From NCBI GenBank assembly GCA_964387675.1, contig CAYLWL010000003.1, forward strand, positions 6,436-70,435: 64,000 nt of DNA, read 5' to 3'. A model generated the notes under the pieces. That model searched no databases, had not been told where the DNA came from, and saw only the letters and a program-made list of their open reading frames with translations. How positions within the stretch are numbered: position 1 is the first letter of the stretch; each line of letters begins with the position of its first letter. Shown here in pieces: positions 1,230 through 63,179 of this stretch. A program made the position numbers and the translations under genes. This DNA comes from an uncultured Candidatus Saccharibacteria bacterium (lineage in GTDB: Bacteria; Patescibacteriota; Minisyncoccia; UBA6257; 2-01-FULL-56-20).

Positions 1230-2702
1230 ATGACACGTTTCTTCGAAATCCTTCCGGGAGCTCTCGCGTGGAGCACCCTAGTTTTGGTGATTGTTTTTTC
1301 GAGGGTTTTGCCCAGCTTTGTTTCTATTTTTATCATACTGTTCGACATTTACTGGCTTCTCAAAACCATATACCTCTCTCTTCATCTGCGAGCCACATTT
1401 ACGGCGATGAAGAAGAATATGAAGATCGACTGGGCAGAGCGTTTGCGAAGGATTCCGCGGTCGCAAGACCTTTACCATTTGATCATCTTGCCGATGTATA
1501 AGGAGCCCTACGAGGTGGTGCGGGAAAGCTTCGAGACCATCCTCGGCGCTCATTACCCGAAAGACAGATTTATCGTTGTTCTCGCCACGGAAGAGCAAGG
1601 AGGGAAAGAGGCGCAAGAAACCGCCAAAAAAATCGAGAAAGAATTCGGCGACGCGTTTTTCAAGTTTTTAGCGATCACGCACCCTGCCGGTCTTCCGGAA
1701 GAAATTCCCGGAAAGGGTTCGAACGAAACATGGGCCGGAAAAGAAGTGAAACGGCTTGTGGTTGATCCTTTGGGGCTGGATTACAAAAAGATACTTGTTT
1801 CCGTTTTCGACGTGGACACACAGGTGTTTCCGGAATACTTCGGACGGCTGGCGTATGTTTTTTTGACCTCGGAGAAACCCTTGCGCGCCATCTACCAGCC
1901 GGTACCGCTTTTCACGAACAACATTTATCGGGCGCCGGCTTTGGCGCGCGTCGTTTCGTTCTCCGCCACGTTTTGGCAGATGATGCAACAGTCGCGGCCG
2001 GAGCGGCTCACTTCTTTTTCTTCGCAGTCCATCCCTTTTCAGGTCTTGGTAGACATCGGTTTTTGGAACACGGACATCGTTTCCGAGGACTCCAGGATTT
2101 TTTGGCAGTGTTTTTTGCACTACGGCGGCGATTTTCGGGTGGAGCCGCTCTTGTACCCGGTTTCGATGGACGCGAACGTTGCCCCGACGTTTTGGGGCAC
2201 GATGAAAAATATTTACAAACAGCAGCGTCGCTGGGGCTGGGGCGTGGAGAACATTCCGTATATGCTCGATGGCTTCAGGAAAAATCCGAACATTTCCCCC
2301 GCTCAAAAGAGATACTGGACGTTCAATGTGCTTGAAGGGTTCCATTCGTGGGCGACGAATTCTTTGATGATCTTCGTGCTTGGCTGGCTGCCGCTCGCGC
2401 TCGGCGGGAAGAGTTTTAACTACACCCTGCTTTCATATAACTTGCCCCAAGTTACCCGGTATATCGTTACCATCTCGATGATTGGCGTGATGAGCTCGGC
2501 GGTTTTGGCGATTCTTTTACTGCCGCCGCGCCCTTCGTGGTTCAAGCCGAAACATTATCTTGTATATTTTTTGGAGTGGATACTGATTCCCATCACGATC
2601 AACGTATTCGGAGCTCTGCCGGGCCTTGAAGCGCAAACAAGGATGATGCTTGGAGGGAAGTTCAGATTGGGATTTTGGGTAACGCCAAAACATAGAGCTT
2701 AG
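1230..2702 (+). CDS. Family 2 glycosyltransferase, processive (cellulose-synthase-like) type, multi-TM
   Basis: 490 aa with N- and C-terminal TM segments. It has a QQRRW motif (QxxRW of processive GT2) and an acidic DxD-like region (FDVDTQ). Confidence 0.7.
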   Translation: MTRFFEILPGALAWSTLVLVIVFSRVLPSFVSIFIILFDIYWLLKTIYLSLHLRATFTAMKKNMKIDWAERLRRIPRSQDLYHLIILPMYKEPYEVVRESFETILGAHYPKDRFIVVLATEEQGGKEAQETAKKIEKEFGDAFFKFLAITHPAGLPEEIPGKGSNETWAGKEVKRLVVDPLGLDYKKILVSVFDVDTQVFPEYFGRLAYVFLTSEKPLRAIYQPVPLFTNNIYRAPALARVVSFSATFWQMMQQSRPERLTSFSSQSIPFQVLVDIGFWNTDIVSEDSRIFWQCFLHYGGDFRVEPLLYPVSMDANVAPTFWGTMKNIYKQQRRWGWGVENIPYMLDGFRKNPNISPAQKRYWTFNVLEGFHSWATNSLMIFVLGWLPLALGGKSFNYTLLSYNLPQVTRYIVTISMIGVMSSAVLAILLLPPRPSWFKPKHYLVYFLEWILIPITINVFGALPGLEAQTRMMLGGKFRLGFWVTPKHRA

Positions 2703-3192
2703 TAGGTGGTAAGTAGTAAGTAGTAGGTGGTAGAATCGAAATATGGCCGAAAAATTGAACATTAAATCCTATAGAGACCTAATCATCTGGCAGAGAACAA
2801 AATCTTCCGCTGTTTTGATATATAAAATAACCGAAAAGTTTCCTACATCCGAGCTTTACGGCATTACGAGCCAAATGCGTCGTGCTGCTGTTTCTATGCC
2901 ATCGAATATCGCAGAGGGATTTAGAAGAAAGTCGGTAAAAGAAAAATTACAATTTTTGCGTATGGCTTACGGATCTGGTGCCGAACTGGAAACTCAACTG
3001 GAAATTAGTCGCGATTTGGGATACTTGAGTGATCAGGATTATAAAAATCTATCTACTGAATTAGACCAGACCATGAAGATGATGAATAGAACAATTAACA
3101 CGCTGGAGAATTAGGTTTGATATAATGAAAGCATCCGGAAACCAATGAAAAAATCAGATTCTACCTACTACCTACTACTTACTACCTACTCG
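2702..3192. mobile_element. Inverted-repeat-bounded cassette carrying a four-helix-bundle gene (MITE-like/IVS-like element)
   Basis: Left arm GTAGGTGGTAAGTAGTAAGTAGTAGGTGGTAGAA (2702-2736). Its reverse complement TTCTACCTACTACCTACTACTTACTACCTAC lies at about 3157-3190. A solo arm copy sits inside uvrC at 57278-57303. Confidence 0.5.
2743..3114 (+). CDS. Four-helix-bundle protein (23S rRNA intervening-sequence protein family; Avd-like fold)
   Basis: 123 aa. Conserved N-terminal motifs L(I)IWQ..., MPSNIAEGF and GSGAELETQLEIS are typical of TIGR02436/PF05635 family proteins. Confidence 0.8.
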   Translation: MAEKLNIKSYRDLIIWQRTKSSAVLIYKITEKFPTSELYGITSQMRRAAVSMPSNIAEGFRRKSVKEKLQFLRMAYGSGAELETQLEISRDLGYLSDQDYKNLSTELDQTMKMMNRTINTLEN

Positions 3193-11875: not shown

Positions 11876-11962
11876 TTATAAATGATTAATCTGTTAAGAT
11901 GTAAACAATTTAGGGTTATTGACCATTAATCTCTTTTCGTATACTATTTCTTAACATACGAA

Positions 11963-11995
11963 GCAAAGAGCAAAGAGCCGAGAGCAAAGAGCGAG
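11963..11995. repeat. Solo copy of the IR arm of the second four-helix-bundle cassette (GCAAAGAGCAAAGAGCCGAGAGCAAAGAGC)
   Basis: Near-identical to 60983-61012. Located in the rpsL upstream region. Confidence 0.55.
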
Positions 11996-12073
11996 TTTCG
12001 AAATATCGAAATCGAAATACCAATATTGCAAGTTTGCCCCTACGCTCTTAGCCCTACGCTCTTAACAAACACC

Positions 12074-12977: not shown

Positions 12978-15098
12978 ATGCCCCGACTGTATCCGATAGA
13001 AAAGGTACGTAATATCGGCATTATTGCCCATATCGACGCCGGGAAGACCACCGTCTCCGAGCGCGTGCTTTTTTATACCGGCGTTTCTCACAAAATCGGC
13101 GAGGTGCACACGGGTGATACCGTGATGGATTGGATGGAACAGGAACGCGAACGGGGGATCACCATCACCTCCGCCGCCACCACGGCTTTTTGGATACCGA
13201 CGCATGTTAGCAAAGAGCAAAGAGCAAAGAGCAAAGAGGACGAGCACATGATCAATTTAATCGATACTCCGGGACACATCGATTTTACCGTGGAGGTCAA
13301 GCGCTCGCTTCGCGTTTTGGACGGCGCCGTCGTCGTGTTCGACGGCGTGGCCGGCGTTGAGCCCCAGTCGGAAACCAACTGGCGTTACGCGGACGAATAC
13401 CACGTGCCGAGAGTTTGCTTTATTAACAAGCTGGACAGAATGGGCGCGAGCTTCGAGAAAAGTTTCGAGTCCATCAAAGATCGTCTTACTCAAAACGCCA
13501 TCCCCATCCAGCTCAACATCGGCCTCGAGGGGGATTTTAAGGGAGTAATAGATCTTCTTGAGGATAAGGCCTACGAATTCCAAGGGGAGCACGGCGAACG
13601 CATCGTCGAGGTTCCGACTCCGGACAATATGAAAGAGTCCATCAAAAAGCACCGCCACGAACTGATCGAAAAGATCGTTGATAATGACGACGAGCTGATG
13701 GCGGGCTATCTTGAGGGAAAAGACATAGACATTGCTTCGCTCAAGAAAGTTTTGCGGAAGGCCGTCATCGAGAACAAGATCGTGCCGGTGATGTGCGGTT
13801 CGGCCCTGAAGAACAAGGGAGTCCAGTTCATGCTCGACGCGGTGGTTGATTACCTGCCGTCTCCGCTTGACATTCCGCCGGTCAAGGGCATTGACCAAAA
13901 GACCGGAGCGGAAGTGTTTCGGCACCCCAAAGACGAAGAGCCGTTTTCCGCGCTCGCGTTCAAAATAGCGACCGATCCGTACGTGGGAACGCTCACATAC
14001 TTCAGGAATTATTCCGGCGTGCTCAAGAAGGGCTCGTATATTTTGAACTCCACGAAAGGCCAGCAGGAGCGCGTGGGCCGCGTCGTCCGCATGCACGCGA
14101 ACTCAAGGGAAGAAGTGGACGAAATTTACGCCGGTGAAATCGCGGCGATCGTCGGCTTGAAGAACACGACGACGGGGGACACCCTGTGCTCTCCCGACGC
14201 GCCTTTGGTGCTCGAGAGGATCACGTTTCCCGAGCCCGTCATCGGCATTCGCATTGAACCCAAAACGAAAGCCGACCAGGAGAAAATGGGCACTGCTCTG
14301 CATCGTCTCGCGGAAGAAGACCCGACGTTCCGCGTTGCCGGGGACCCGGAAACCGGAGAAACCATCATCTCCGGCATGGGCGAACTGCATTTGGAAATTA
14401 TCGTCGACCGGATGAAGCGCGAGTTCAGCGTCGATGCCTCCGTTGGCAGGCCGCAAGTCGCGTATAAAGAAACGATCATGGCCGAAGCCGAGGCGGAAGG
14501 AAAATACATCAAGCAGTCGGGGGGTCGCGGCCAATACGGGCACGTGCGCTTGCGCGTAAAGCCCCTGGAACGTGGCAAGGGATTCGAGTTTATCGACGAG
14601 ATCAAAGGAGGCGTCATTCCGCAGGAGTTCATCGCTCCGGTTGAAAAAGGCGTGAAGGAGGCGCTTGACAAAGGCGTGATCGCGCATTATCCGATGGTGG
14701 ATATCGAGGTGACGCTCTACGACGGATCGTTCCACGAAGTTGATTCTTCGGAGGCGGCGTTCAAGATCGCGGGATCCATGGCTCTCCAGGAAGCCGCGAA
14801 GCGCGCGAAGCCGGTGATTCTTGAGCCCGTTATGAAAATTCAAGTCGTGATCCCCACGGAATTTTTAGGAGAAGTTACGGGCAATTTGAATTCGAAACGC
14901 GGAAGAATCGAAGAACTTTCCGACCGGCCGAACGTTAAAGTGATCGACGCCAAAGTCCCGCTTTCCGAAATGTTCGGATATGCCACGGAACTTCGCTCGA
15001 TGACGCAAGGACGAGGGGCATTCACGTTAGAGTTTGATCATTACGAACCCGCCCCCCAAAATGTTGCCCAACTCATAATTGAAGGCAAAAAAAGGTAG
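12978..15098 (+). CDS. fusA: Elongation factor G
   Basis: [18 protein letters not shown] and full EF-G domains. It contains an in-frame (CAAAGAG)3 repeat-derived insertion (KEQRAKSKE) just before DTPGH. Confidence 0.95.
13209..13232 (+). repeat. (CAAAGAG)3 heptanucleotide repeat in-frame within fusA; solo fragment of the GCAAAGAGC arm family
   Basis: AGCAAAGAGCAAAGAGCAAAGAGG read directly from the sequence. It encodes [10 protein letters not shown] between switch-region motifs. Confidence 0.8.
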
Positions 15099-24836: not shown

Positions 24837-24840
24837 ACTT

Positions 24841-25936: not shown

Positions 25937-25944
25937 TAAGAAAC

Positions 25945-26719: not shown

Positions 26720-26723
26720 ATTC

Positions 26724-27745: not shown

Positions 27746-27835
27746 GAAATAAGACATGAGAAATGAGAGATGAGGAACGGAACACGTAAAAACCTAATTT
27801 CTCATTTCTAATTACTCATCTCTATTATATATACC
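27746..27835. repeat. Family E element, copy 7
   Basis: GACATGAGAAATGAGAGATGAGGAACGG...CCTAATTTCTCATTTCTAATTACTCATCTCTATT. Confidence 0.75.
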
Positions 27836-28189: not shown

Positions 28190-28271
28190 GACATCAGAAA
28201 CTAGACATCAGAAATCAGAACGTAGCCAACCCAAACTAATTACTGATAACTGATAACTAATCCCTATTAAT
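28190..28271. repeat. Diverged family E-like element (CATCAGAAAT...CTGATAACTGAT variant)
   Basis: GACATCAGAAACTAGACATCAGAAATCAGAACG...TAATTACTGATAACTGATAACTAAT has the same architecture with CAG/CTG in place of GAG/CTC. Confidence 0.55.
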
Positions 28272-28736: not shown

Positions 28737-28822
28737 AAAGGAATTAGACGAGAGACATTAGACATTAGGAACGACTTACATAAAACCTAATTTCTCATTT
28801 CTAATTACTCATCTCTATTACC
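28737..28822. repeat. Family E element, copy 8 (occupies the position where rpmD/L30 is normally found)
   Basis: AGACATTAGACATTAGGAACGACTTACATAAAACCTAATTTCTCATTTCTAATTACTCATCTCTATT. Confidence 0.7.
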
Positions 28823-29260
28823 ATGCAGCTGCACGAGCTCAAAAAATTCAGAAATAAAAACAAAAAACGCATCGGCCGCGGCGGCAAGCGCGGCAGTTAT
28901 TCGGGGCGCGGCGTGAAGGGTCAGAAATCGAGAGCGGGGAGGAGGATTCGCCCGGCAGAAAGAGATTTGATTATACGCCTGCCGAAGCGGCGCGGTTTTC
29001 GAAACAAACCCAAGAGTCCCAAGCCGATGGTTTTCAACCTGAAAGATTTGTCGAAGTATATCAAGACCCATTCCGAGAAAGGGAAAAGTTTGGTTATCGA
29101 TAAAACGTTCTTGCGGGAAGTCGGTCTTGTGCCGACCCATTATCGCGGTGAAGTGAAAATCTTGGGAATGGGAGAGGTGTATGCCCCCGTGAAAGTTCAA
29201 GGATTAAAATTGTCGAAGAGTGCTAAGATGAAGGTTGAGAAAGTAAGATATGAGAAATGA
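28823..29260 (+). CDS. rplO: 50S ribosomal protein L15
   Basis: KRIGRGGKRGSYSGRGVKGQKSRAG. Confidence 0.9.
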   Translation: MQLHELKKFRNKNKKRIGRGGKRGSYSGRGVKGQKSRAGRRIRPAERDLIIRLPKRRGFRNKPKSPKPMVFNLKDLSKYIKTHSEKGKSLVIDKTFLREVGLVPTHYRGEVKILGMGEVYAPVKVQGLKLSKSAKMKVEKVRYEK

Positions 29261-29323
29261 GATATGAGGGACGGAACGTATAAAAACCTAATTTCTCATC
29301 TCTAATTACTCATCTCTATTGCC
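29261..29323. repeat. Family E element, copy 9
   Basis: GATATGAGAAATGAGATATGAGGGACGG...CCTAATTTCTCATCTCTAATTACTCATCTCTATT. Confidence 0.75.
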
Positions 29324-33557: not shown

Positions 33558-33664
33558 GCGAAATACCAATATACTAATTCGTGCGAATGATACTAATCAT
33601 ACTAATAACAGATTCGTATTATTTGTATCATTAGTATGCATTCGTATATTGGTATCACATTTTT
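33558..33664. repeat. Family G element, copy 4
   Basis: Near-identical to 19565-19666, with a small internal duplication. Ends at the lysS start. Confidence 0.75.
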
Positions 33665-35110
33665 ATGCTTGACGACCTCATTAACGAACGGTTAAAAAAA
33701 CTCGACGAGATCAAGAAGGCCGGCCTTGATCCGTATCCTGCGAGCGCCGCGAGAACCTTGGAAATTGCGGAGGCGCGCAAGAAGTTTGACGAGTTGAGCG
33801 CGAGCAAAAAGAGCGTGGTGTTGGCGGGGCGCCTTATGAGTATGCGGGATCAGGGCAATATTTCTTTTTTGGATCTGGCCGACGAGAGCGGGAAAATCCA
33901 GATCGTTTTCAAAAAGGATATTCTGTCGAAGTTCGATTTCTGGAAAGATGTTTTGGATATAGGCGATTTCGTTGAGGCCGGCGGCGTTCTTTTTAAGACG
34001 CAGAAAGGCGAGGAAAGTTTGGAGGTCCACGATTTTCGCATGCTCACTAAATCGCTTCGTCCGATACCGAGCGAGTGGTACGGCGTGCAGGATATAGAGA
34101 CACGCCTTCGCAAGCGGTATTTGGATTTGATCGCCAACAAGGAAACGCGGGAGTTATTCAGAAAAAAAGCCGTTTTCTGGCAGACCATTCGGAATTTTAT
34201 GATCAGGCAGGGATTTTTGGAGGTGTGGACGCCGGTTCTCGAAAACATTCCCGGCGGCGCGGACGCCGAGCCGTTTGTTACTCACCACAATGCTCTAGAC
34301 AGGGATTTTTACCTGCGCATTTCGCTCGAATTGCCGCTCAAGCGACTGCTTGTCGGCGGCTACGACAAGGTCTTCGAAATCGGCCGGCTTTTCAGAAACG
34401 AGGGTATCGACCGCGAGCATTTGCAGGAATATGACGATATGGAATTTTACTGGGGCTACGCCGATTACAAAGATGGCATGAAGTTTGTGGAAAAGTTGTT
34501 CAAGGCGGTCGTTAAAAACGCCGTCGGTTCGATGGAAACCGAATATGAGGGCGCCAAAATCAACTGGGACGGGAAGTGGCCAAAAGTTGATTATTTCTCG
34601 GCGTTCAAAAAAGAAGCGGGCTTGGATTTGAACAAAGTTAATGAAGATGCGTTAAGAAAAAAAGCTCGGGATTTGGGGGTTGCCGTTGACGTTACGTCGG
34701 GCAAGGGGCGACTCATAGACGCGATTTACAAAAAAACCGTAAGGCCAAAACTAATCCAGCCGTGTTTTTTGGTCGGCCATCCGGTGGAAATATCGCCCTT
34801 GGCGAAAGCGGACTCCAAGAATCCCAAGAAAGTTTTGCGTTTTCAGGTTGTGGCGGGAGGCACGGAATTGGGTAACGGTTTTTCAGAGCTCAATGACCCG
34901 ATTGATCAAAAAGAGCGTTTTCAGGCGCAAATGAAGTTGCGCGAAGCTGGCGACAAGGAGGCGCAGATGCTGGACGAGGATTTTGTGGAAGCGTTGGAGT
35001 ACGGCATGCCACCGGCGGTGGGCTTCGGCGTGAGCGAGCGACTGTTCGCGGTGTTGATGAATAAGCCCGTGAGAGAGACGGTGATTTTTCCTCCGATGCG
35101 TTTGGAGTAA
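33665..35110 (+). CDS. lysS: Lysyl-tRNA synthetase (class II)
   Basis: OB anticodon-binding N-terminus. Class II motifs FRNEG, and motif 3 near ERLFAVLMN. Confidence 0.9.
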   Translation: MLDDLINERLKKLDEIKKAGLDPYPASAARTLEIAEARKKFDELSASKKSVVLAGRLMSMRDQGNISFLDLADESGKIQIVFKKDILSKFDFWKDVLDIGDFVEAGGVLFKTQKGEESLEVHDFRMLTKSLRPIPSEWYGVQDIETRLRKRYLDLIANKETRELFRKKAVFWQTIRNFMIRQGFLEVWTPVLENIPGGADAEPFVTHHNALDRDFYLRISLELPLKRLLVGGYDKVFEIGRLFRNEGIDREHLQEYDDMEFYWGYADYKDGMKFVEKLFKAVVKNAVGSMETEYEGAKINWDGKWPKVDYFSAFKKEAGLDLNKVNEDALRKKARDLGVAVDVTSGKGRLIDAIYKKTVRPKLIQPCFLVGHPVEISPLAKADSKNPKKVLRFQVVAGGTELGNGFSELNDPIDQKERFQAQMKLREAGDKEAQMLDEDFVEALEYGMPPAVGFGVSERLFAVLMNKPVRETVIFPPMRLE

Positions 35111-35111
35111 T

Positions 35112-35572
35112 CGCGAATAACGCGAATAATCGGATGAATAACGCGAATAGTAAAATAGTCCTGCCAGAATTAAGTTACTCCATAATCGGAGCCGCCTTTA
35201 GAGTTTTTAATGAATTGGGGTGGGGATTTTCAGAAAAACATTATCAAGGTGCGCTCGCGAAGGAATTAGAAGATGCGGGTCTGCTATTTCGCCGAGAGGT
35301 TTATATCCCCTTCACTTACAAAAGTTCAACCATAGGTCGTTACTTTGCCGATTTCATTGTTAACGATAAGATTCTCCTAGAACTTAAAGTAGTTCCAAAA
35401 TTTGGATACGTTCATTTACATCAGGCATTGGGTCACTTGCATAGTGCAAAGTTGAAACTAGGAATATTAATCTACTTTACACGCGAAGGAATAAAGTATC
35501 GGAGGGTTGTTAATCCGGATGTATAATAATTCGCGTTATTTAATTAAAGATTCGAGTTATTCGCGATTACTC
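35112..35572. mobile_element. Inverted-repeat-bounded cassette carrying a GxxExxY (PD-(D/E)XK) gene
   Basis: Left arm CGCGAATAACGCGAATAATCGGATGAATAACGCGAAT contains the cargo start codon. The right arm is its reverse complement (ATTCGCGTTATTTAATTAAAGATTCGAGTTATTCGCG) and ends at the ATG of the next gene. Empty copies are at 22642-22728 and 25078-25160. Confidence 0.55.
35134..35526 (+). CDS. GxxExxY family protein (PD-(D/E)XK nuclease fold)
   Basis: 130 aa with a GALAKELEDAG motif. The N-terminal MNNANSK is encoded by the repeat arm. Confidence 0.8.
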   Translation: MNNANSKIVLPELSYSIIGAAFRVFNELGWGFSEKHYQGALAKELEDAGLLFRREVYIPFTYKSSTIGRYFADFIVNDKILLELKVVPKFGYVHLHQALGHLHSAKLKLGILIYFTREGIKYRRVVNPDV

Positions 35573-35573
35573 C

Positions 35574-35993
35574 ATGGCTAAGGTGATGGTTTTCGGTGTT
35601 TTCGATGGCATTCATGAGGGCCATCGAGCGCTTTTTCGAGAAGCAAAAAAATACGGCAAATACTTGGTCGCCGTGGTCGCGCAAGACAGGACGGTCGAAT
35701 ACTTGAAGGGCCATCTCCCGAAATATACTTTGGCGAAAAGAATCGAGGACTTGCAAAAAGAAAAACTGGTTAATGAAGTGGCGCTCGGCGACGCCGAGCC
35801 GGGAAGTTATGAAGTCATACTCAAGCATCGGCCGGACGTTCTCGCGCTCGGTTATGACCAGGAAGATTTCAAAGAAAACCTCGAGGAAAATCTGGAAAGA
35901 TTCGATTGGCGGCCGGAGATCGCGGTCTGTCGCTCCTACGAGCCGGAGAAATATCACAGCCACCTGCTTCATTTTGGCAAGTATAAAAATTAA
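35574..35993 (+). CDS. Cytidylyltransferase-like nucleotidyltransferase (HxGH motif; FAD synthetase N-domain-like)
   Basis: FGVFDGIHEGH, then a YLVAVV Rossmann-like segment. 139 aa. Confidence 0.55.
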   Translation: MAKVMVFGVFDGIHEGHRALFREAKKYGKYLVAVVAQDRTVEYLKGHLPKYTLAKRIEDLQKEKLVNEVALGDAEPGSYEVILKHRPDVLALGYDQEDFKENLEENLERFDWRPEIAVCRSYEPEKYHSHLLHFGKYKN

Positions 35994-38935: not shown

Positions 38936-40720
38936 ATGCCCAATGAATCCCCGTGGGGAACAAAACCGAGTTTGAAAAGAGCGGCCTCCGAAGAAAAATC
39001 AATAGGAAGGGGCGTTTTTTGGCTCGTTGGAATAATCGTTCTGGGAATTGCGGCAGCCGGCGCTTATTACTTTTTACAGCCGCAAGGCGCGAATGTGGGA
39101 CTCGACTTTTCTAAGCCAAACCAGGTGCTTCTTGGGGACCCCTTAACGCTTTCCGTTTCCGCCTCGAATTACTCGGACGGCGTTTTAAGGGGGGCGAAAA
39201 TCTCGCTTTTTTTGCCGGAAGGAGTTTCTTTCACGGGACAGCCGCAAAGCCAGCGGGCGATGGAGCAAACATTGGGCGACGTGGGGCCAGGGAGCATCAA
39301 CCAGCAAGGGTTTTCGCTCATCGTCACCAGCGGTCCGAATTCGGTAAAGCGCATAGAAGCGAAATTGATCTATTCCACCGCGGGGAATCCCAATACCCAG
39401 TTCGAGCACGCGCAAAACGTCGATCTTTTGGTGGGACAGCCGGCGGTGAGCGTCAATCTTTCCTCGCCGGAGAATGTATTCAGCGGTGAGGAATTCCAGG
39501 TGCAAATTACGTATCTGAACAACACAGGCCGTGATTTTAAGAACCTGCGCCTGAAGATTGATTATCCGCCGATTTTCGAGTTCAAGAGAAGTTCCATGGC
39601 AACCGAGGATTCGAGCAATAATGTTTGGAGTATTGGCACGCTCACTGCCGGCTCCGGAGGGAATATCTCCGTTACGGGGAGCATCGTCGGTCAGGAAAAA
39701 TCGTTTTTCAGTTTCAACGGGTCGGTGGTCGCCGACTTTTTGGGCGTGACGTATACCATCAATACCCAGTCGGCGAACGTCGCCATTTCTCCGGCGCCGC
39801 TTTCGCTTGGAATCGTTTTGAGTAACGGTTCGGATTATGTCGTCCGCCCCGGAGACATGCTGGATTACGCTTTACAGTTCAAAAACAATTCCGACGTCGC
39901 GATGCAGAATGTCAACATAAAAGCCAAGCTGATCGGGGAAATGTTCGATTTTTCGAGCCTGCAGTCGGGAGCGGCTTTCGATTCTTTGACAAACACGGTT
40001 TCCTGGTCGCCGGCGACGACCGCGGGGCTTTCGAACGTCGCGCCGGGCGCAAGCGGCTCGGTGGATTTCCGCGTTCACGCGAGACAAACGTTCCCCATCA
40101 AATTCATCAGCGACAAAAATTATACTTTAAAAATCCAGGCCCGGATCGAGTCTCCCACGGTGCCGCAGAACACGACGGCGCAAAAAACCGTTTCCGTGGC
40201 CGATGTGGAACATAAGGTGGCCGGCCGGTTGGCGCTCACGGCAGAGGCATACTGGCGGGACGCCGCTTCCGGGATTTTGAACACAGGTCCTTATCCTCCG
40301 AAGGTCAACAAACCGACTCAATATACCGTTCATTGGCGATTGGCGAATTACGCGACTGACGTGTCGAGTATTATCGTTTCCGCTCACCTGCAATCAGGCG
40401 CCCGCTTTACCGGCAAGACGAAAAACACGGGAGGCGGTGTCGTAAATTACGACTCGAACTCCGGCTTGGTCACGTGGAATATCGCCTCCGTGCCGGCAAC
40501 GAAAGGCGTGGTGAGCGCCCCTCTCGAGCAGGTATTCCAAATCGAAGTAACACCTGCTATAAATCAAGTGAACCAGAATATAGTGTTTTTGAGCGAGAGC
40601 AAGGCGGAAGGCAACGACGTGTTTACGGGACTTTCCATAAGCGCGGGCGCGCCGCAACTGGATTCCAATTTGCCGTATGACAAAACGATTGCCGTGTCGG
40701 ACAGAACCGTAAAACAATAA
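38936..40720 (+). CDS. Large membrane-anchored/secreted beta-rich repeat protein (possible DUF11-type repeats)
   Basis: TM anchor VFWLVGIIVLGIAAAGAYYF, then ~550 aa of repeated Ig-like-looking segments (…VSVNLSSPENVFSGEEFQVQITYLNNTG…). The real start is probably at MPNESP or later. Confidence 0.45.
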   Translation: MPNESPWGTKPSLKRAASEEKSIGRGVFWLVGIIVLGIAAAGAYYFLQPQGANVGLDFSKPNQVLLGDPLTLSVSASNYSDGVLRGAKISLFLPEGVSFTGQPQSQRAMEQTLGDVGPGSINQQGFSLIVTSGPNSVKRIEAKLIYSTAGNPNTQFEHAQNVDLLVGQPAVSVNLSSPENVFSGEEFQVQITYLNNTGRDFKNLRLKIDYPPIFEFKRSSMATEDSSNNVWSIGTLTAGSGGNISVTGSIVGQEKSFFSFNGSVVADFLGVTYTINTQSANVAISPAPLSLGIVLSNGSDYVVRPGDMLDYALQFKNNSDVAMQNVNIKAKLIGEMFDFSSLQSGAAFDSLTNTVSWSPATTAGLSNVAPGASGSVDFRVHARQTFPIKFISDKNYTLKIQARIESPTVPQNTTAQKTVSVADVEHKVAGRLALTAEAYWRDAASGILNTGPYPPKVNKPTQYTVHWRLANYATDVSSIIVSAHLQSGARFTGKTKNTGGGVVNYDSNSGLVTWNIASVPATKGVVSAPLEQVFQIEVTPAINQVNQNIVFLSESKAEGNDVFTGLSISAGAPQLDSNLPYDKTIAVSDRTVKQ

Positions 40721-40721
40721 T

Positions 40722-40889
40722 ATGATGAGCAAGATGCGTTTTTCGGAACCGGCGGTTCGTCTGCTCCTGCGGCAGACGCCCGCCTGGCTCTCGGGCTTCT
40801 CGACCGAGCACAGAGAGAATTCTCTCTGTGCTCGGTACCAAGCCGAGAAGCCCTCCGAGGTCTTCCTCAAAACGCATCTTGCTCATCAT
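40722..40889. repeat. GC-rich structured element, family D copy B, bounded by 21-bp inverted repeat
   Basis: ATGATGAGCAAGATGCGTTTT...AAAACGCATCTTGCTCATCAT. Internal motifs TTCGGAACCGGCGGTTCG and CTTCCTCAAAAC are shared with copies C and D. Confidence 0.55.
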
Positions 40890-40902
40890 TAGCGCGTAGA
40901 AT

Positions 40903-42219
40903 ATGACGGAGGACATGAAACAAATCAAAGAAGAAAACAATCTAATGGAAAAAGTAGTTTCGCTTTGCAAGAGGCGCGGTTTTATTTTTCCGGGCTCGGA
41001 GATTTATGGCGGCCTTGCGAATTCATGGGATTATGGCCCCTTAGGAGTGGAGCTGAAGAACAACATCAAGCAGCTGTGGTGGAATATGTTCGTCCACAGA
41101 CGGGACGATGTGGTCGGGATTGACGCGGCGCTCATTATGAATCCGAAGGTGTGGGAAGCGAGCGGGCACACAGGAGCCGGTTTTGCGGATCCGCTCATCG
41201 AATGCCGCAAGTGCCATGAGCGTTATCGCCTTGATCAGCTCGAAGAAAAGAAATGTCTTAACTGCGGCGGAAAGGAATTCACGGAACCGAAAATGTTCAA
41301 CATTCTTATGAAAACTTATCTCGGAGCGGTTGAAGGAGACAAATCCGAGGTTTATCTCCGAGGAGAGACCGCGCAAGCGATGTTCGTTGACTTCAAAAAT
41401 ATCCTTGATACCACAAGAAAAACTCTGCCATTCGGTGTCGCGCAAATAGGAAAGGCGTTTCGTAACGAAATCACGCCCGGAAATTTCATTTTCCGCACAC
41501 GCGAATTCGAGCTGATGGAGGTTGAGTATTTCGTCAAGGAGGAAAACTGGGAAAATTACTTCGAATATTGGCGGAAAGAAATGAACGGCTGGCTTAAAGA
41601 AATCGGAGTAGATATGAGAAAGATTCACGAAGTAGAAATTCCGGAAGGAGAACGGGCACACTATTCGAAACGGACGATCGATTTTGAATACGATTATCCT
41701 TTTGGCCAGAAAGAGCTTTACGGACTTGCGTATAGAACCGATTTCGATCTAAAGAACCACTTTAAGGAGCCGCCATACCGCGATCCGGAGACCGGCGGAG
41801 AATTCTGGCCGCACGTCATCGAACCCGCGTTGGGCGTAGACCGCTCGGTTCTTGTTGTTCTTCTCGATGCCTACACGGAGGAAAAAGACCGCGTCGTACT
41901 CAAACTCAAACCTCGCCTCGCGCCGTATAAAGCCGCAGTTTTCCCGCTTCTCGCGAACAAGCCGCAACTCGTGGAGAAGGCTCGTGAAGTATTCCGAAAT
42001 CTGAAGTCCGATCTCCGATATCCGATCGCATGGGACGACCGCGGCAACATCGGTAAGCGTTACTACTCACAAGACGAGATCGGCACGCCTTTTTGTATCA
42101 CAATTGACTTCGATAGTTTGGACAAAAACGACGTTACGGTGAGAGACAGGGATACGGCGAAACAAGAAAGAGTGGCGATAGCCGATCTCAAAGAGTATAT
42201 CTCCGGTAAAATTCGCTAG
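40903..42219 (+). CDS. glyQS: Glycyl-tRNA synthetase, dimeric alpha2 (archaeal/eukaryote-like GlyQS) type
   Basis: RRGFIFPGSEIYGGLANSWDYGPLG, an insertion domain with C..C...C..C, and a C-terminal anticodon-binding domain. Confidence 0.85.
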   Translation: MTEDMKQIKEENNLMEKVVSLCKRRGFIFPGSEIYGGLANSWDYGPLGVELKNNIKQLWWNMFVHRRDDVVGIDAALIMNPKVWEASGHTGAGFADPLIECRKCHERYRLDQLEEKKCLNCGGKEFTEPKMFNILMKTYLGAVEGDKSEVYLRGETAQAMFVDFKNILDTTRKTLPFGVAQIGKAFRNEITPGNFIFRTREFELMEVEYFVKEENWENYFEYWRKEMNGWLKEIGVDMRKIHEVEIPEGERAHYSKRTIDFEYDYPFGQKELYGLAYRTDFDLKNHFKEPPYRDPETGGEFWPHVIEPALGVDRSVLVVLLDAYTEEKDRVVLKLKPRLAPYKAAVFPLLANKPQLVEKAREVFRNLKSDLRYPIAWDDRGNIGKRYYSQDEIGTPFCITIDFDSLDKNDVTVRDRDTAKQERVAIADLKEYISGKIR

Positions 42220-42225: not shown

Positions 42226-43488
42226 ATGAAGTTTGTTGTAGAGGGTGGAAAAACTTTGCAAGGTGAAATCGAAGTACGGGGCGCGAAGAACTCTGTGATG
42301 AAAGCGATGGCCTGCTCGCTTCTTTTTGACGAGCCGGTAGTTCTCGAGAATGTGCCCTTGATCGAAGATGTGTTTAGGATGGCAGAGCTTTTGGAGAACC
42401 TGGGCGCGAAGGTAGAAAAAACGGGCGAGCGGAGTTTCCGGCTTGATCCAAGCGCTGCCGAAGGCACCGATTTGAGGAAAGAAATAGCCAAAAGACTGCG
42501 GGCATCGATCGTTATCGCGGGACCGCTCCTCGCGCGCAACAAAAAGGTTTCCTCTCCCCACCCCGGCGGATGCGTGATAGGGAAGAGGCCCATCGATCTG
42601 TTTCTTGATGGCTGGAGGGCTATGGGGGCGAACGTTACGGACGGCGAAGCCGGATTCGAGGTCGAAGCGGAAAAGTTGAAAGGAACGGATTTTACGTTCC
42701 GCGTGGTGAGCGTGACCGGAACGGAAACGTTGATGATGACCGCCGTGCTCGCCGATGGAAAAACGGTCTTGCGGAACGCGGCGATGGAGCCGGAAATTCC
42801 GGCGCTCGCGAAGTTTTTGAATGATTCCGGAGCCGAGATCAGCGGCGCGGGTACGCCGACCGTCGAGATTGTGGGTACGGGAGGACGATTGCTTCGCGCC
42901 AAAAGTCCTTTCCGGATTATTCCCGACAGGATTGAGGCGGGAAGTTTTTTGATACTGGGCGCGGCATTGGGCCGCAACGTGAAGATCAAAAACTGCAACC
43001 CCGAGCATCTTGCTTCTGTTATCGCGACATTGATCAGCGCGGGAGTGCCTATCGGCATCGGGAGAGATTGGATCTCCGTTTCGCGTCCTCCGAAGATTTC
43101 CGCTCTCGATGTGAAAACGAAAGAGTACCCCGGTTTCCCGACCGATTTGCAGGCGCCGATCACCGCGCTGATGACCCAGGCGGAAGGCGAAAGCAAGATC
43201 GTTGAAACCATATTTGAGAATAGGTTTGGGTATATTGAGGACTTAAAACGAATGGGCGCGAATATTATTTTGTGCGATCCACAGAGAATTTTAGTGAAAG
43301 GACCGACGGAACTCCGCGGACGGGAAATAGAAAGCCCGGATTTGCGAGCGGGGCTTGCGTTCGTGATCGCCGCGCTTCTCGCAAAAGGGGGGTCCGTGGT
43401 GAGTAATGTGTATCAAATCGACCGCGGATACGAAAAAATCGACGAGCGGTTGCGTTTGTTGGGAGCAGAGATAAAGAGAGTGGACTGA
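42226..43488 (+). CDS. murA: UDP-N-acetylglucosamine 1-carboxyvinyltransferase
   Basis: MKFVVEGGKTLQGEIEVRGAKNS..., an EPSP-synthase fold. The active-site Cys region is replaced by ...PGGCVIGKRPID. Confidence 0.9.
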   Translation: MKFVVEGGKTLQGEIEVRGAKNSVMKAMACSLLFDEPVVLENVPLIEDVFRMAELLENLGAKVEKTGERSFRLDPSAAEGTDLRKEIAKRLRASIVIAGPLLARNKKVSSPHPGGCVIGKRPIDLFLDGWRAMGANVTDGEAGFEVEAEKLKGTDFTFRVVSVTGTETLMMTAVLADGKTVLRNAAMEPEIPALAKFLNDSGAEISGAGTPTVEIVGTGGRLLRAKSPFRIIPDRIEAGSFLILGAALGRNVKIKNCNPEHLASVIATLISAGVPIGIGRDWISVSRPPKISALDVKTKEYPGFPTDLQAPITALMTQAEGESKIVETIFENRFGYIEDLKRMGANIILCDPQRILVKGPTELRGREIESPDLRAGLAFVIAALLAKGGSVVSNVYQIDRGYEKIDERLRLLGAEIKRVD

Positions 43489-43635
43489 TTTCTGCGGCAC
43501 TGCTCTTCGGAACCGCGGTTCGCTCGCTCCAGCGGCTCGCGCCCGCTGCCTCTCGGCAATTCGACTCCGACTGCGGTTGGAGACCAAGCTCGAATTGCCT
43601 CCGAGAGCTTCCTCAAAACAGCGCGGCAGAAATCA
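43486..43635. repeat. GC-rich structured element, family D copy C
   Basis: TGATTTCTGCGGCAC...CAGCGCGGCAGAAATCA terminal inverted repeats. The core ACTCCGACTGCGGTTGGAGACCAAG is the reverse complement of the core of copy A. Confidence 0.55.
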
Positions 43636-56435: not shown

Positions 56436-56512
56436 GTGAAGGATTTTGTCCCTCCGCCACGGCTTTGCGCCGCGGCGGATTTGTTTTATTGTAGGTAGGT
56501 ATTTTCATTTGT

Positions 56513-57790
56513 ATGCATCGAGAAAACTTATATAAAAACCTCCCCGATTCTCCGGGCGTATATCTTATGAAGGATGCGTGCGGGGCCGTGATCTATGTCG
56601 GCAAGGCCGGAAATTTGAAAAGACGGGTATCGAGTTACTTCGCGAGAGCCCACGATTTGCGGATCGAGCGATTGGTAAACGAAATTAAAAAGATCGACTG
56701 TCAGAAAACGGACACCGCGCTCGAGGCCTTGATTTTAGAGTCCAAGCTCATCAAACGGCTTAACCCCAAGTTCAATGTCAAAGAAAAAGACGACAAAAGT
56801 TTTTTGTACGTCGCGATTACCAAAGAAAAGTTTCCGCGCGTGCTTTTGGCGAGAGGGTCAAGGGTCAAGAGTCAGGGGTCAAGAATTGATGATTGGTATG
56901 GACCCTTTACTTCGGCCGGCAGTATCCGCGAGGCATTGAAGATTTTGCGCCGGATTTTCCCGTGGAGCAACCACATAGTGACAAGGGACATGAGACAAGC
57001 GACAAGGGACGCCACCAAGCCATGTTTCGATTACGAGATCGGCCTTTGTCCGGGAACCTGCATCGGCGCGATAAGCAGCAAAGATTATTTGAAAAATATC
57101 AACCGGCTCAAATTGTTTTTTGCGGGCAAGAAGCTTCGGGTACTGGGGTCTTTGCAAAAGGAAATGAAAGCGGCGAGCAAGCGCCTGGAATTCGAGAAGG
57201 CCGAAAAACTCCGCCGCCAGATATTCGCCCTTCAACATATTCGCGACACGGCGCTGATTAATGAAGAGCCGTTTCCACATACTACCTACTACCTACCACA
57301 TACTTTTCGTATTGAGGGCTACGACATCTCCAACATCTCCGGCGCTTCCGCCGTCGGCGCGATGGTGGTGTTCAGGGGCGATCATCCGCGGAAAGACGAG
57401 TATCGGAAGTTCAAAATAAAAACAATCCACGGTTCTCATGATGTCGGCATGCTCCGCGAAGTTCTCGGGCGTCGATTTGGAAATTGGAAATTGGAAATTG
57501 GAAATTCGAAGAGATGGCCTCTGCCCGACCTCATTCTTGTCGACGGCGGCATTCCCCAGGTGAACGCCGCGCGATCGGTGCTTCGCGAATATGGCCTTGC
57601 CATCCCGATTGTGGGCATAGCCAAGGGGCCAACGAGAAAAAGGAATGACGTTATCGGGATTATTCCAGCGGGCATTAGTCGAAAAACGCTTATCCGCGTG
57701 CGTGACGAAGCGCACCGCTTCGCCATCGGTTATCACAAAAAACTCCGCGGCAGAGAATTCATTCCTCGAACTAACGAACGGTCACTTTGA
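56513..57790 (+). CDS. uvrC: Excinuclease ABC subunit C, short form lacking C-terminal (HhH)2 domain, with several repeat-derived in-frame insertions
   Basis: GIY-YIG (GVYLMKDACGAVIYVGKAGNLKRRVSSY), a UVR domain (LEFEKAEKLRRQIFALQHI), and an RNase H-like endonuclease region. Insertions are at 56850-56885, 56975-57015, 57278-57303 and 57479-57506. Confidence 0.8.
   Translation: MHRENLYKNLPDSPGVYLMKDACGAVIYVGKAGNLKRRVSSYFARAHDLRIERLVNEIKKIDCQKTDTALEALILESKLIKRLNPKFNVKEKDDKSFLYVAITKEKFPRVLLARGSRVKSQGSRIDDWYGPFTSAGSIREALKILRRIFPWSNHIVTRDMRQATRDATKPCFDYEIGLCPGTCIGAISSKDYLKNINRLKLFFAGKKLRVLGSLQKEMKAASKRLEFEKAEKLRRQIFALQHIRDTALINEEPFPHTTYYLPHTFRIEGYDISNISGASAVGAMVVFRGDHPRKDEYRKFKIKTIHGSHDVGMLREVLGRRFGNWKLEIGNSKRWPLPDLILVDGGIPQVNAARSVLREYGLAIPIVGIAKGPTRKRNDVIGIIPAGISRKTLIRVRDEAHRFAIGYHKKLRGREFIPRTNERSL
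57479..57506 (+). repeat. (GGAAATT)4 heptanucleotide tandem repeat inside uvrC coding sequence
   Basis: Read directly from the sequence. It encodes GNWKLEIGNS. The unit length is not a multiple of 3. Confidence 0.9.
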
Positions 57791-60696: not shown

Positions 60697-60830
60697 CTTA
60701 CCATTTTTTATCTAAAAAGTCAATTTTTCGCACGCAACTTGACCTCAATCTGAAAATGCACTAAGATAAAAAATAGGATTTAGGATTTGTAACGCAGGAG
60801 TAATAATCCTAGATTCTAGATTCTCGTCTC

Positions 60831-60983
60831 ATGGGCGGCGTACCGGTAAAACATCACTCAAAAGGAAAAGTAGGCCGGAGACGGTCTCATTTGGCGCTCA
60901 AAAAGCAGCGTCTTTTCGTTTGTGCAAACTGCGGCGGGCCAAAGGTGGCGCATCGGGTTTGCAGACAGTGCGGGAAGTCGTAG
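60831..60983 (+). CDS. rpmF: 50S ribosomal protein L32 (zinc-binding form); below the 60-aa ORF-track cutoff
   Basis: Manually translated: MGGVPVKHHSKGKVGRRRSHLALKKQRLFVCANCGGPKVAHRVCRQCGKS. It matches the bacterial L32 pattern RR.H.AL......C.NCG.PK..HRVC..CG. Confidence 0.8.
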   Translation: MGGVPVKHHSKGKVGRRRSHLALKKQRLFVCANCGGPKVAHRVCRQCGKS

Positions 60984-61392
60984 CAAAGAGCAAAGGGCCG
61001 AGGGCAAAGAGCATACAGCATGTTTAGATTTGAAAACTTAGAAATTTGGCGCTTGGGCGTTGATTATGGCAAAGATTGTTACAAAATTTCCTCATCTTTT
61101 CCCGGGCATGAAAGATTCGGGTTGGGTGACCAGCTTCGTCGAGCCGCTATCTCCATTTCCAACAATATCGCAGAAGGATCTGTTGGCTCCACGGCAAACT
61201 TTAAAAAATATCTCGTCACCGCATTGGGTTCAACTCTAGAAACTGTCAATATATTGAATTTTGCTTGCGAAGTTGGTTACATAACCGCCAATATTAAGGA
61301 AGAAATGTATGGTAGGGCAGAGTTGTTAATTAAGAAGTTAAGAGCGTTTTCTAAAGTTTTAAACCCTTAGCTCTTTGCTCTTCGCTCTTTGC
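60983..61392. mobile_element. Second inverted-repeat-bounded cassette carrying a four-helix-bundle gene, inserted with no spacer between rpmF and nusB
   Basis: Left arm GCAAAGAGCAAAGGGCCGAGGGCAAAGAGC (60983-61012). Right arm GCTCTTTGCTCTTCGCTCTTTGC (61370-61392) is its imperfect reverse complement. Solo arm copies at 11963-11995 and 13209-13232. Confidence 0.55.
61020..61370 (+). CDS. Four-helix-bundle protein (23S rRNA intervening-sequence protein family), second copy
   Basis: 116 aa. LEIWRLGVDYGKDCYKI..., ISNNIAEGS and GSTLETVNIL are paralogous to the protein at 2743-3114. Confidence 0.8.
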   Translation: MFRFENLEIWRLGVDYGKDCYKISSSFPGHERFGLGDQLRRAAISISNNIAEGSVGSTANFKKYLVTALGSTLETVNILNFACEVGYITANIKEEMYGRAELLIKKLRAFSKVLNP

Positions 61393-61400
61393 AAAATTTT

Positions 61401-61838
61401 ATGGCCACGCGGCATCTTATAAGAACAGTTATCCTCCAATCCCTCTATGAATGGGATTTTTACGCCCAAAAAAGAGATATTGTGGCGATTTTGGACAGAA
61501 ATCTTTCCGAATACGCCCCCGGGATCGACGAGCCGGAATTCGCCTGGAAGATTTTGAACGGCATCGCCGAGCGCATCAAGGACCTGGACAACGTCATCAC
61601 GAAAGCCGCTCCGGAGTGGCCGCTCGACAAAATCGCCGTTATCGACAGAAACATTTTGCGCATCGGCCTTTACGAACTTTTGTACGCCGATCCGAACGAA
61701 GTGCCTCCAAAAGTTGCCATCAACGAAGCGATAGAACTTGCCAAAAACTATGGCGGCCCGAACGCCGCGCGATTCATCAACGGAGTTTTGGGAACGATTT
61801 ATCGTGAACTCGAGGCAAGCAAAGGAATAACTAAGTGA
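61401..61838 (+). CDS. nusB: Transcription antitermination factor NusB
   Basis: [19 protein letters not shown]...[17 protein letters not shown]...[24 protein letters not shown]. Confidence 0.85.
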
Positions 61839-61914
61839 GATACCAATATACGAATTCATGCGAATGATACTAATCATACAAATTCGTATTATTTAGTATC
61901 ATATTCCTAATATC
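61839..61914. repeat. Family G element, copy 5 (diverged)
   Basis: GATACCAATATACGAATTCATGCGAATGATACTAATCATACAAATTCGTATTATTTAGTATCAT. Confidence 0.6.
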
Positions 61915-62604
61915 ATGCAACCAAAACCAGACAACCTTGAGGAAAAAGTCGGGGTAAAATTCAAGAATCCCGATTTGTTGATCGAGGCCCTCACGCACCG
62001 CTCGTATCTCAACGAATATCCGAAGTGGCGCCTGCCGCATAATGAACGCCTTGAGTATCTGGGCGACGCGGTTTTGGAACTCATGGTCACCGAAGAACTA
62101 TTCTCCCGATTCCCGAGTTATCCGGAGGGACAGCTTACCGTTTTGAGGGCGGCGCTCGTGAATTATCAAACGCTGTCTAAAATCGCCGAAGAAATAAAAC
62201 TGCAAAGTTTTATTTTGCTTTCGCGGGGAGAAAAGAAAGATATGGGCAAGGCGCGAGAGGTGATTCTCGCGAACGCGATGGAGGCGGTCATCGGGGCGAT
62301 GTATCTCGACCATGGTTTTGAGCCGACCAGGAAGTTCGTTAAAAAGTTCGTTATGGCGCGCCTCGACGAAATTATGAAGACCAAAAGCTATAAAGACGCG
62401 AAGAGCGAGCTTCAGGAGATAGTGCAGGAACGATTGAAAGTTACGCCGACGTATAAGGTCTTGGAAGAGTCCGGGCCGGCTCATAAGCGAGTTTTCAAAA
62501 TCGGGGTTTATTTCGGAGAAAAACTCATTGCTTCCGGCTCTGGCGCCTCAAAGCAAGACGGCGAGATCGAAGCGGCGAAGGAGGCAGTGAAGAGGTATAG
62601 ATAG
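61915..62604 (+). CDS. rnc: Ribonuclease III
   Basis: ALTHRSYLNE, the ERLEYLGDAVLEL signature, and a C-terminal dsRBD. Confidence 0.9.
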   Translation: MQPKPDNLEEKVGVKFKNPDLLIEALTHRSYLNEYPKWRLPHNERLEYLGDAVLELMVTEELFSRFPSYPEGQLTVLRAALVNYQTLSKIAEEIKLQSFILLSRGEKKDMGKAREVILANAMEAVIGAMYLDHGFEPTRKFVKKFVMARLDEIMKTKSYKDAKSELQEIVQERLKVTPTYKVLEESGPAHKRVFKIGVYFGEKLIASGSGASKQDGEIEAAKEAVKRYR

Positions 62605-62882: not shown

Positions 62883-63179
62883 ATGAAGCAATGGAGGGTT
62901 TTTATCACGCCCACAGCCGAAAAGTTGGCGAAAAATCTTGAACCTAAAGCGAAGCATTTCATTCTCAACGAATTCCCGGATATCGTAAGAAAAAATCCGT
63001 TGGCTGGCGATAAGCTCTCCGGGCCACTTTCGTGGCTACGGAGTTTTCATTTTTCAAGTGAGGGAAAACCTTATAGAATTGCATATAGTGTCAACCTAGA
63101 AGAATCAGAAATAGTCGTTCACTATATGGGGTATCGGGGAAAGTTTTATGAAAAACTACGGAGGCATTTTGGTCGCTAG
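62883..63179 (+). CDS. RelE/ParE-family type II toxin
   Basis: 98 aa. The FHFSSEGKPYRIAYSVNLEESEIVVHYMGYRGK pattern matches the RelE/ParE core. Confidence 0.55.
   Translation: MKQWRVFITPTAEKLAKNLEPKAKHFILNEFPDIVRKNPLAGDKLSGPLSWLRSFHFSSEGKPYRIAYSVNLEESEIVVHYMGYRGKFYEKLRRHFGR

Follow-up and report, generated by a model that had tools for sequence, protein, structure and literature searches.

The window analysed here is a 64,000-nucleotide stretch of contig CAYLWL010000003.1 from an uncultured Candidatus Saccharibacteria bacterium. Close to its end, the genes rpmF and nusB, which are followed by the RNase III gene rnc, are separated by a 116-residue open reading frame (ORF) encoding a four-helix-bundle (4HB) protein (Table 1). 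All four genes are located on the plus strand (60831-62604). The 4HB ORF is bracketed by two complementary arrays of heptanucleotide repeats, referred to below as arms. The original prediction described a 4HB cassette inserted without any spacer between rpmF and nusB, with a left arm starting at the last base of the rpmF stop codon and a right arm running from the 4HB stop codon into the nusB start region, and direct reading of the sequence showed that both the coordinates and the arm boundaries were exact. The rpmF stop codon TAG occupies positions 60981-60983, and its final G is the first base of the left arm, GCAAAGAGCAAAGGGCCGAGGGCAAAGAGC. The right arm, GCTCTTTGCTCTTCGCTCTTTGC, begins with the final G of the 4HB stop codon and ends 8 nt before the nusB ATG. 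Both arms adjoin stop codons, and the cassette fully occupies the rpmF-nusB spacer. Tandem Repeats Finder (TRF) identified period-7 arrays at 60982-61013 (4.6 copies) and 61366-61392 (3.9 copies). The sole plus-strand promoter-like match upstream of the cassette precedes rpmF, and a motif scan of the rpmF-nusB interval, including the cassette interior, found neither a promoter-like nor a terminator-like match.

The two arms can form a duplex of 22 base pairs with a computed energy of -37.9 kcal/mol. They pair with each other in the minimum-energy fold of the complete 431-nt region, so that the stem envisaged in the original prediction is recovered, and the left and right spacers fold weakly when taken singly (-4.5 and -3.2 kcal/mol, respectively). 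The motif GCAAAGAGC occurs 13 times in the window, compared to 0.78 expected occurrences, and a count of 13 was reached in none of 100 shuffles. The window contains 47 arrays with a period of 7 or 14, compared to approximately 2.6 per block shuffle. These counts rule out chance low complexity as the source of the arms. Searches of Rfam with the gathering threshold and with E<=1 did not identify any family matching the arms or the cassette, and the Rfam matches in the window were limited to two tRNAs, with no rRNA. The minimum-energy fold from the window also joins the initial 36 nt of the ORF to its final 36 nt, but this pairing was rejected as a conserved element (-8.7 versus -8.6 kcal/mol).

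The protein encoded by the cassette matches PF05635 (23S_rRNA_IVP) with E=9e-26 and 90.6 bits against a cut-off of 33.8, over model positions 1-105 of 106. Its match to TIGR02436 ("four helix bundle protein") has E=9e-23 and 80.6 bits against a cut-off of 24. It contains the conserved NIAEG motif, its nearest homologue is 75% identical, and the profile of its subfamily matches the pentameric protein XCC0516 of Xanthomonas (PDB 2GSC, E=4e-19). The ORFs of the subfamily are under strong purifying selection (median dN/dS of about 0.09). Genes of the PF05635/TIGR02436 and GxxExxY families, both of which serve as cargo of cassettes in the window, are among the commonest small bacterial genes that are still unexplained. 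None of the three cargo proteins of the window matched a defence model in PADLOC. Proteins of PF05635 are homologous to Avd, which forms a four-helix-bundle pentamer (PMC10053308), and this likeness suggests a nucleic-acid-binding role for the 4HB protein. The same homology could mean that the locus is a remnant or an accessory gene of a diversity-generating retroelement, with the 4HB protein corresponding to Avd, and the protein of another 4HB cassette in the window, the first cassette, weakly matches the Avd models NF033474 (29 bits) and PF22296 (24 bits). However, these scores are far below the respective cut-offs of 80 and 40 bits, no reverse transcriptase was detected by Pfam among the window ORFs tested, and the flanking repeats are complementary heptamer arrays rather than a pair of template and variable repeats. 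We therefore consider an origin from a diversity-generating retroelement extremely improbable.

The rpmF-nusB site was compared among relatives by scanning GTDB species representatives with a NusB profile, which provided 80 loci from metagenome-assembled genomes of Paceibacteria and Liptonbacteria (individual loci are denoted by L and a number). The synteny of rpmF, nusB, and rnc is preserved in nearly all of them, and the rpmF-nusB spacer, 0-359 nt long, is mostly devoid of an ORF. Adjacency of the two genes without the insert, which the original prediction had suggested looking for, is the arrangement in most of the 80 relatives; about 35 possess a short spacer without a hairpin, and about 15 contain an ORF-less hairpin built of heptamer repeats with diverse units. 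L038 carries an internally deleted remnant of the same 4HB gene, 64% identical over the remaining part, and intact 4HB genes are present at this site in the metagenome contigs L089-L092, L096, and L100. The 4HB gene occupies the site in approximately six of roughly 90 related lineages, the hosts of which are scattered on the NusB tree. The 4HB proteins resident at the site exhibit mutual identities of 66-70%, regardless of whether the NusB proteins of their hosts are 53% or 74% identical. A reference is available in the first cassette, inherited in common with the L006/L170 organism, whose 4HB protein is only 70% identical at a NusB identity of 89%. The 4HB protein therefore normally diverges faster than NusB, and the case of L089 points to lateral arrival at the same rpmF-nusB site.

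The three closest relatives (L006, L008, and L010, with NusB 85-89% identical to that of the window) contain at this site an unrelated acidic ORF of 73-84 residues with the motif WAV(V/I/M)...G...V(V/L)K.GF..EE(D/A)A..W. The ORF from L006 has no Pfam match and is visibly enclosed by a stem unlike that of the cassette. The 30 nt upstream of nusB in 77 relatives are depleted in G and enriched in T and A at positions -15 to -1, with no Shine-Dalgarno-like signal. Many NusB homologues in databases are annotated as 10-50 residues longer than NusB of the window, probably because the pyrimidine-rich arm has no stop codons.

Cassettes outside the window were studied using 64 unique metagenomic loci encoding members of the same 4HB subfamily with identities of 46-74%. 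The lag-7 autocorrelation within the 45 nt beside the ORF is 0.53 upstream and 0.50 downstream, compared to a background of about 0.25, and the commonest heptamers are of the GCAAATA type upstream and of the TATTTGC type downstream. Period-7 arms of this family accompany the ORF in all of the loci. The arms contain a median of 4.6 (left) and 4.1 (right) heptamers, adjoin the start and stop codons, and preserve both period and motif even where protein identity falls to 46%. Pairing of the 45-nt flanks was compared with that of dinucleotide shuffles and of non-cognate arms. The mean energy of the cognate duplex is -25.6 kcal/mol, compared to -17.3 kcal/mol for shuffled sequences (57 of 64 loci, p=1e-10) and -21.5 kcal/mol for arms from other loci (43 of 64, p=8e-5). 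An earlier control with non-cognate 90-nt flanks was misleading, because arms of one family cross-pair. The loci represent at least eight operon-internal contexts: rpmF/nusB, tRNA-Thr/tRNA-Trp, clusters of tRNA-Pro, tRNA-Arg, and tRNA-His, histidine kinase/fpg, a position before prgI, parA/parB, a position after wzy, and degT/capD. Cassettes that are 79-85% identical occupy three different contexts. A tRNA gene is located within about 150 nt downstream of the 4HB gene in approximately 33 of 60 scanned loci, always in the same orientation, and all examined flanking protein genes are also co-oriented with the 4HB gene.

Homologues of the first cassette display arms of the GTAGGTA/GTAGCAA type both in the orthologous context, between genes for a glycosyltransferase and a pilin, and in a different one (L168). 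The type of arm follows the protein subfamily, and arms and cargo are co-inherited, which is unlike the outcome predicted from local capture of ORFs by pre-existing hairpins. The original prediction regarded the existence of two cassette families with the same class of cargo as a sign of a general mechanism; the arm-ORF-arm families are real, with strong support from the loci outside the window, but the mechanism itself was not part of that proposal. In L104 (190-1536), a GxxExxY gene and a 4HB gene are arranged in series in front of tRNA-Trp. Two 4HB genes of different subfamilies flank neighbouring genes in L171 (1501-3166) and L168 (1-1872), and the second 4HB gene of L171 has arms of its own type, CTAATGA / TCATTAG.

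The anatomy of the cassette resembles that of intervening sequences (IVSs) of rRNA. The IVS of Coxiella is 428 nt long, contains an S23p ORF in the loop, and has a stem formed by 28-bp terminal repeats that is cut in the middle by RNase III (PMC4990558). IVSs bearing S23p/PF05635 genes have been reported in the 23S rRNA of Coxiella burnetii, Leptospira, and Xanthomonas (PMC4990558), and 23S_rRNA_IVP ORFs are also found in rRNA insertions of candidate phyla radiation (CPR) bacteria (PMC11270868). The cassettes and the IVSs share a length of about 410-430 nt, a protein of the same family encoded in the loop in the sense orientation of the host transcript, and a terminal complementary stem, which is 22-37 bp long here and 28 bp long in Coxiella. 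Both lack a promoter of their own, are distributed sporadically, are transferred laterally, and are located in highly transcribed operons of the translation apparatus. Unlike IVSs, the cassettes are positioned in spacers of protein or tRNA genes rather than in an rRNA helix, their arms are tandem heptamer arrays, and the genome also contains the same pair of arms without cargo.

Based on these similarities, we propose that the locus is a selfish cassette of the IVS type that lives in a protein-gene operon rather than in 23S rRNA, an interpretation that we consider probable but not firmly established. The arm-gene-arm unit probably represents a type of mobile element that has not been described outside rRNA. 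The heritable unit would consist of an arm, the 4HB ORF, and the complementary arm, with each arm containing about four to five heptamers. Since the cassette does not have its own promoter or terminator and is co-oriented with the host unit, its transcription may depend on read-through from the rpmF promoter. Pairing of the arms in the RNA would create a stem of 22 bp or more and bring the rpmF stop codon beside the nusB start. RNase III, encoded two genes downstream, may cut the stem, as judged from the cleavage of the 28-bp S23p stem of Coxiella. The rRNA IVSs are known to be excised by RNase III without re-ligation, and comparable cleavage here would free the cassette RNA from the host cistrons, so that the 410-nt insertion could be tolerated. 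The family would have spread to many operon-internal spacers, rarely and over a long period, and also laterally among distant Paceibacteria into the same rpmF-nusB site. The pair of arms upstream of rpsL and others like it that lack cargo may be deletion products or non-autonomous derivatives, and the half-deleted ORF of L038 illustrates how such a product might arise.

Several observations weigh against this interpretation. Arms of other loci of the family pair almost equally well, and the signal of maintained complementarity is therefore modest. Cargo-less heptamer hairpins are much more numerous in the window than cassettes. A [GC]TCTTT motif is present upstream of nusB in 17 of 77 relatives, compared to none of 74 upstream of rnc, so that some of the right arm may be native to the site. 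The strand test for wobble pairs in the 64 loci gave E+ of -25.6 kcal/mol and E- of -25.5 kcal/mol (34 versus 30 loci); given this lack of a strand bias, the pairing may be as relevant in DNA as in RNA. Near-identical copies were not found, the nearest homologue being 75% identical, so that mobility is historical and not demonstrably current. Furthermore, Pfam identified no transposase, reverse transcriptase, or integrase among the tested ORFs of the 64-kb window, and inspection by eye revealed no target-site duplication, either in the sequences bordering the cassette (TCGTAG before the left arm, AAAATTTTATG after the right arm) or in comparison with empty sites.

Some of these observations would be expected if the hairpins came first, that is, if heptamer hairpins, comparable to those known from cyanobacteria, were structures for the processing or stability of host mRNA, and the 4HB, GxxExxY, and acidic ORFs had been captured in their loops, as the sole neutral place in compact operons, without the arms belonging to any mobile unit. 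Such an order of events fits the cargo-less heptamer hairpins in nearly all spacers of the ribosomal-protein operon, the ORF-less hairpins with diverse units at the rpmF-nusB site of some 15 relatives, the different cargo at that site in the closest relatives, the occurrence of a GCTCTTT-like motif 5' of nusB in relatives free of the cassette, and the fact that period 7 is the most frequent array period in 564 kb of sequence from the 80 relatives. However, it does not explain why the family of the arms tracks the 4HB subfamily over at least eight unrelated contexts in many genomes, nor why a hairpin upstream of rpsL, 49 kb away from the cassette, shares both of its arms. The 5' arm of that hairpin (z=-5.1) is identical to the left arm of the cassette at 31 of 36 positions, the 3' arm is identical to the right arm at 25 of 34 positions, and the homology extends a few bases past the arm on both sides. 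The loop between the arms measures about 45 nt, compared to 356 nt in the rpmF-nusB cassette. We regard the hairpin-first order as unlikely.

The inverted terminal repeats at many sites, the cargo-less derivatives in the same genome, and the lack of strand asymmetry of wobble pairs would also be compatible with a DNA transposon or a MITE (miniature inverted-repeat transposable element). A transposase encoded elsewhere would then recognise the arms as its terminal inverted repeats, the stem would have a role only at the DNA level, and the 4HB gene would be carried as a passenger. The comparison of G.U and A.C mismatches between strands, intended to detect selection at the RNA level, showed no real asymmetry in the three cassettes of the window and was set aside, since it is unable to separate RNA pairing from DNA pairing. 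The lack of a visible target-site duplication, and of a transposase among the window ORFs scanned, speaks against a MITE as well. In addition, the arms consist of tandem arrays that vary and not of one fixed terminal sequence, the cassettes are strictly co-oriented with host transcription, and strong purifying selection on the ORF is not expected for a mere passenger. A transposon origin is very unlikely in our assessment. The Correia elements (nemis) of Neisseria are MITEs in which the inverted repeats give rise to RNase III substrates in mRNA (PMC2649163). They are intergenic, co-transcribed inverted repeats with an effect on mRNA processing, and the cargo-less arm pairs find a good analogue in them. 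They differ in having fixed 26-bp terminal repeats, target duplications, and no ORF, whereas the arms described here are variable heptamer arrays, no duplications were seen, and an ORF may be enclosed. Integron cassettes are similar to the IVS-type cassettes in carrying small promoterless co-oriented ORFs with imperfect inverted repeats. However, attC is a single hairpin located 3' of the ORF and recombined by IntI, whereas the arms of the 4HB cassette pair across the ORF, the downstream spacer folds weakly by itself, and the Pfam-scanned ORFs of the window include no integrase.

The window contains two additional cassettes (Table 1). The protein of the first is identical to a GenBank entry named Candidatus Liptonbacteria, and the genome was assigned to a CPR bacterium of the Liptonbacteria/Paceibacteria. 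The right arm of this cassette serves as coding sequence for the leader peptide of a prepilin-like ORF (3145-3963), upstream of the cleavage motif G|FT(L/V)IEL, and in the orthologues (L166, L170, and L171) the arm likewise encodes the pilin leader, even though the arm sequences differ. Arms invade coding sequence where the protein tolerates it. The third cassette, located between lysS and a gene for a cytidylyltransferase-like protein, is absent from the original prediction. It carries a nuclease-fold GxxExxY gene, and only one further locus of this kind was present in the retrieved DNA. The original prediction also listed solo arm copies upstream of rpsL and inside fusA. Copies at 11963-11992 and 13209-13238 do exist, the latter in frame with fusA, but the former is the 5' arm of the cargo-less pair and is not solitary. 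The fusA array lies in a length-variable loop of EF-G between ...TAFW and ...INLIDTPGH, and it does not have a complementary partner.

Table 1. Positions of the cassettes, arms, repeat arrays, and host genes in the window.
Feature	Position	Strand	Description
First 4HB cassette	2700..3190	+	123-aa 4HB ORF 2743-3114; TRF, duplex, profile matches
Arms of first cassette	left 2700-2737; right 3157-3190	+	TAGTAGG x4.9 and CTACCTA x4.3; 37 bp, -51.9 kcal/mol
Cargo-less arm pair upstream of rpsL	11956..12069	+	5' arm 11956-11991; 3' arm 12036-12069
In-frame array in fusA	13209..13238	+	(AGCAAAG)x4.3, perfect, 30 nt; codes for 10 residues
Third cassette	35103..35574	+	130-aa GxxExxY/PDDEXK_3 ORF 35134-35526
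Arms of third cassette	35103-35148 and 35529-35574	+	46 nt, CGCGAATAA-type repeats; 40 bp, -58.2 kcal/mol
In-frame arrays in uvrC (56513-57790)	56854-56883; 56980-57010; 57280-57304; 57477-57510		AGGGTCA x4.3; GACAAGG x4.4; TACTACC x3.6; TTGGAAA x4.9
Promoter-like site upstream of rpmF	60739..60767	+	TTGACC-17-TAAGAT; sequence match
rpmF (ribosomal protein L32)	60831..60983	+	upstream host gene; Pfam PF01783 L32p, E=2.6e-12
Left (5') arm	60983..61012	+	30 nt, purine-rich: GCAAAGA GCAAAGG GCCGAGG GCAAAGA GC
4HB cargo ORF	61020..61370	+	116 aa, PF05635/TIGR02436; stop TAG 61368-61370
Right (3') arm	61370..61392	+	pyrimidine-rich complement: GCTCTTT GCTCTTC GCTCTTT GC; sequence reading, TRF, duplex
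nusB	61401..61838	+	downstream host gene; Pfam PF01029, E=3.6e-32; start set from homologues (MATRHL...)
rnc (RNase III)	61915..62604	+	third gene of conserved rpmF-nusB-rnc block; Pfam match
Second hairpin family	19573-19617; 24533-24577; 25530-25630; 33558-33664; 61839-61914		last site between nusB and rnc

The arms of the cassettes represent one variety within a class of heptamer arrays that is found genome-wide. Nine arrays of the window lie wholly inside ORFs. Four of them are in uvrC, fusA and the pilin leader contain a single one each, and the remaining three, which are short (2-3 copies), are in other genes. Since arrays are found in the spacers of ribosomal-protein genes and inside ORFs, cassette boundaries are not their sole setting. 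Tandem repeats of 7 bp named STRRs (short tandemly repeated repetitive sequences) have been described from cyanobacteria, where they form intergenic hairpins, for example in hupS-hupL, and their function is unknown (PMC2670836). Like STRRs, the cassette arms consist of 7-bp tandem units between co-transcribed genes and are capable of forming hairpins. Unlike the arms, STRRs have been described from filamentous cyanobacteria rather than CPR bacteria, and there is no report of their enclosing ORFs or of any co-variation with a protein family.

In the tuf/S10-spc operon (17645-29323), nearly each spacer is a cargo-less hairpin composed of an (AGAAATG-type)n array, a AACGAAATACAYAAAA-like loop, and a (CTCATTT-type)n array, spanning from the upstream stop codon to about 10 nt before the next start. 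On the minus strand, the folds of these hairpins are more favourable by as much as about 17 kcal/mol, since the sense strand has A.C mismatches. A simple deamination bias would predict the opposite strand. The uvrC reading frame is not interrupted by its four arrays, of which the TACTACC array is complementary to the arm unit of the first cassette, and a short GTAGGTAGGTA is located just 5' of the uvrC start (~56497-56510). A second family of hairpins, ATACCAATATAC(G/T)AATTCGTGCGAATGATACTAAT... and its complement, is built from sub-repeats of 8-10 nt. It also fills the rpmF-nusB spacer of L061, a different Liptonbacteria genome, which indicates that hairpin families are common to different species. 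A very stable structured element of approximately 150-170 nt is present in two copies (40722-40889 and 43486-43635) with 27-nt outer arms and an internal three-way junction. The copies share the motifs UUCGGAACCG... and ...CUUCCUCAAAAC, and each begins at the stop codon of the upstream gene. The element is not built of heptamers and has no match in Rfam, and the copy at 40715-40905 folds with -112 kcal/mol (z=-12). Directly after rnc, the segment 62610-63179 contains a gene for a ParE-like toxin (62883-63179, PF15781) together with a partner ORF of 62 aa upstream of it. An (AGAAATG)x3.3 array precedes the pair, which represents another accessory insertion in the same operon.

A bolder mechanism can be imagined, in which the pentameric, Avd-like 4HB protein recognises the four to five heptamers of its own arms, about one per subunit, in RNA or single-stranded DNA and promotes the entry of new copies of the arm-ORF-arm unit into spacers that are transcribed. 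The hairpins without cargo and the arrays in fusA, uvrC, and the pilin leader would then be non-autonomous copies or footprints, and the cassettes would constitute a previously unrecognised class of CPR mobile elements. The co-variation of arms with subfamily, the retained period and motif, the repeat counts, and the purifying selection are compatible with self-recognition of the arms. However, co-inheritance alone could be sufficient to produce the co-variation, and we offer this mechanism as a speculation that we ourselves find distinctly unlikely.

A search of the literature did not identify any description of IVS-type cassettes outside rRNA, or of PF05635 genes bracketed by heptamer arrays or inverted repeats. 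The locus and about 70 relatives link three subjects: the PF05635 4HB family, the stem-loop anatomy of rRNA IVSs, and STRR-like heptamer arms that are inherited with the protein. A 4HB gene in IVS-like anatomy occupies spacers of mRNA and tRNA operons. We know of no mode of spread of rRNA IVSs, and to our knowledge no function has been assigned to STRR heptamer repeats since their first description. The interpretation as an IVS-type cassette predicts that RNase III cleaves within the arms, that the pentamer binds heptamer arrays, and that filled and empty alleles exist in populations. For the annotation of CPR genomes, a stop-less pyrimidine-rich arm would explain overlong NusB calls and arms that are read as a pilin leader or as protein loops. 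Recognition of its own arms by the 4HB protein, if true, would provide a function for the very large orphan family PF05635/TIGR02436 and would explain repeats of the STRR type.

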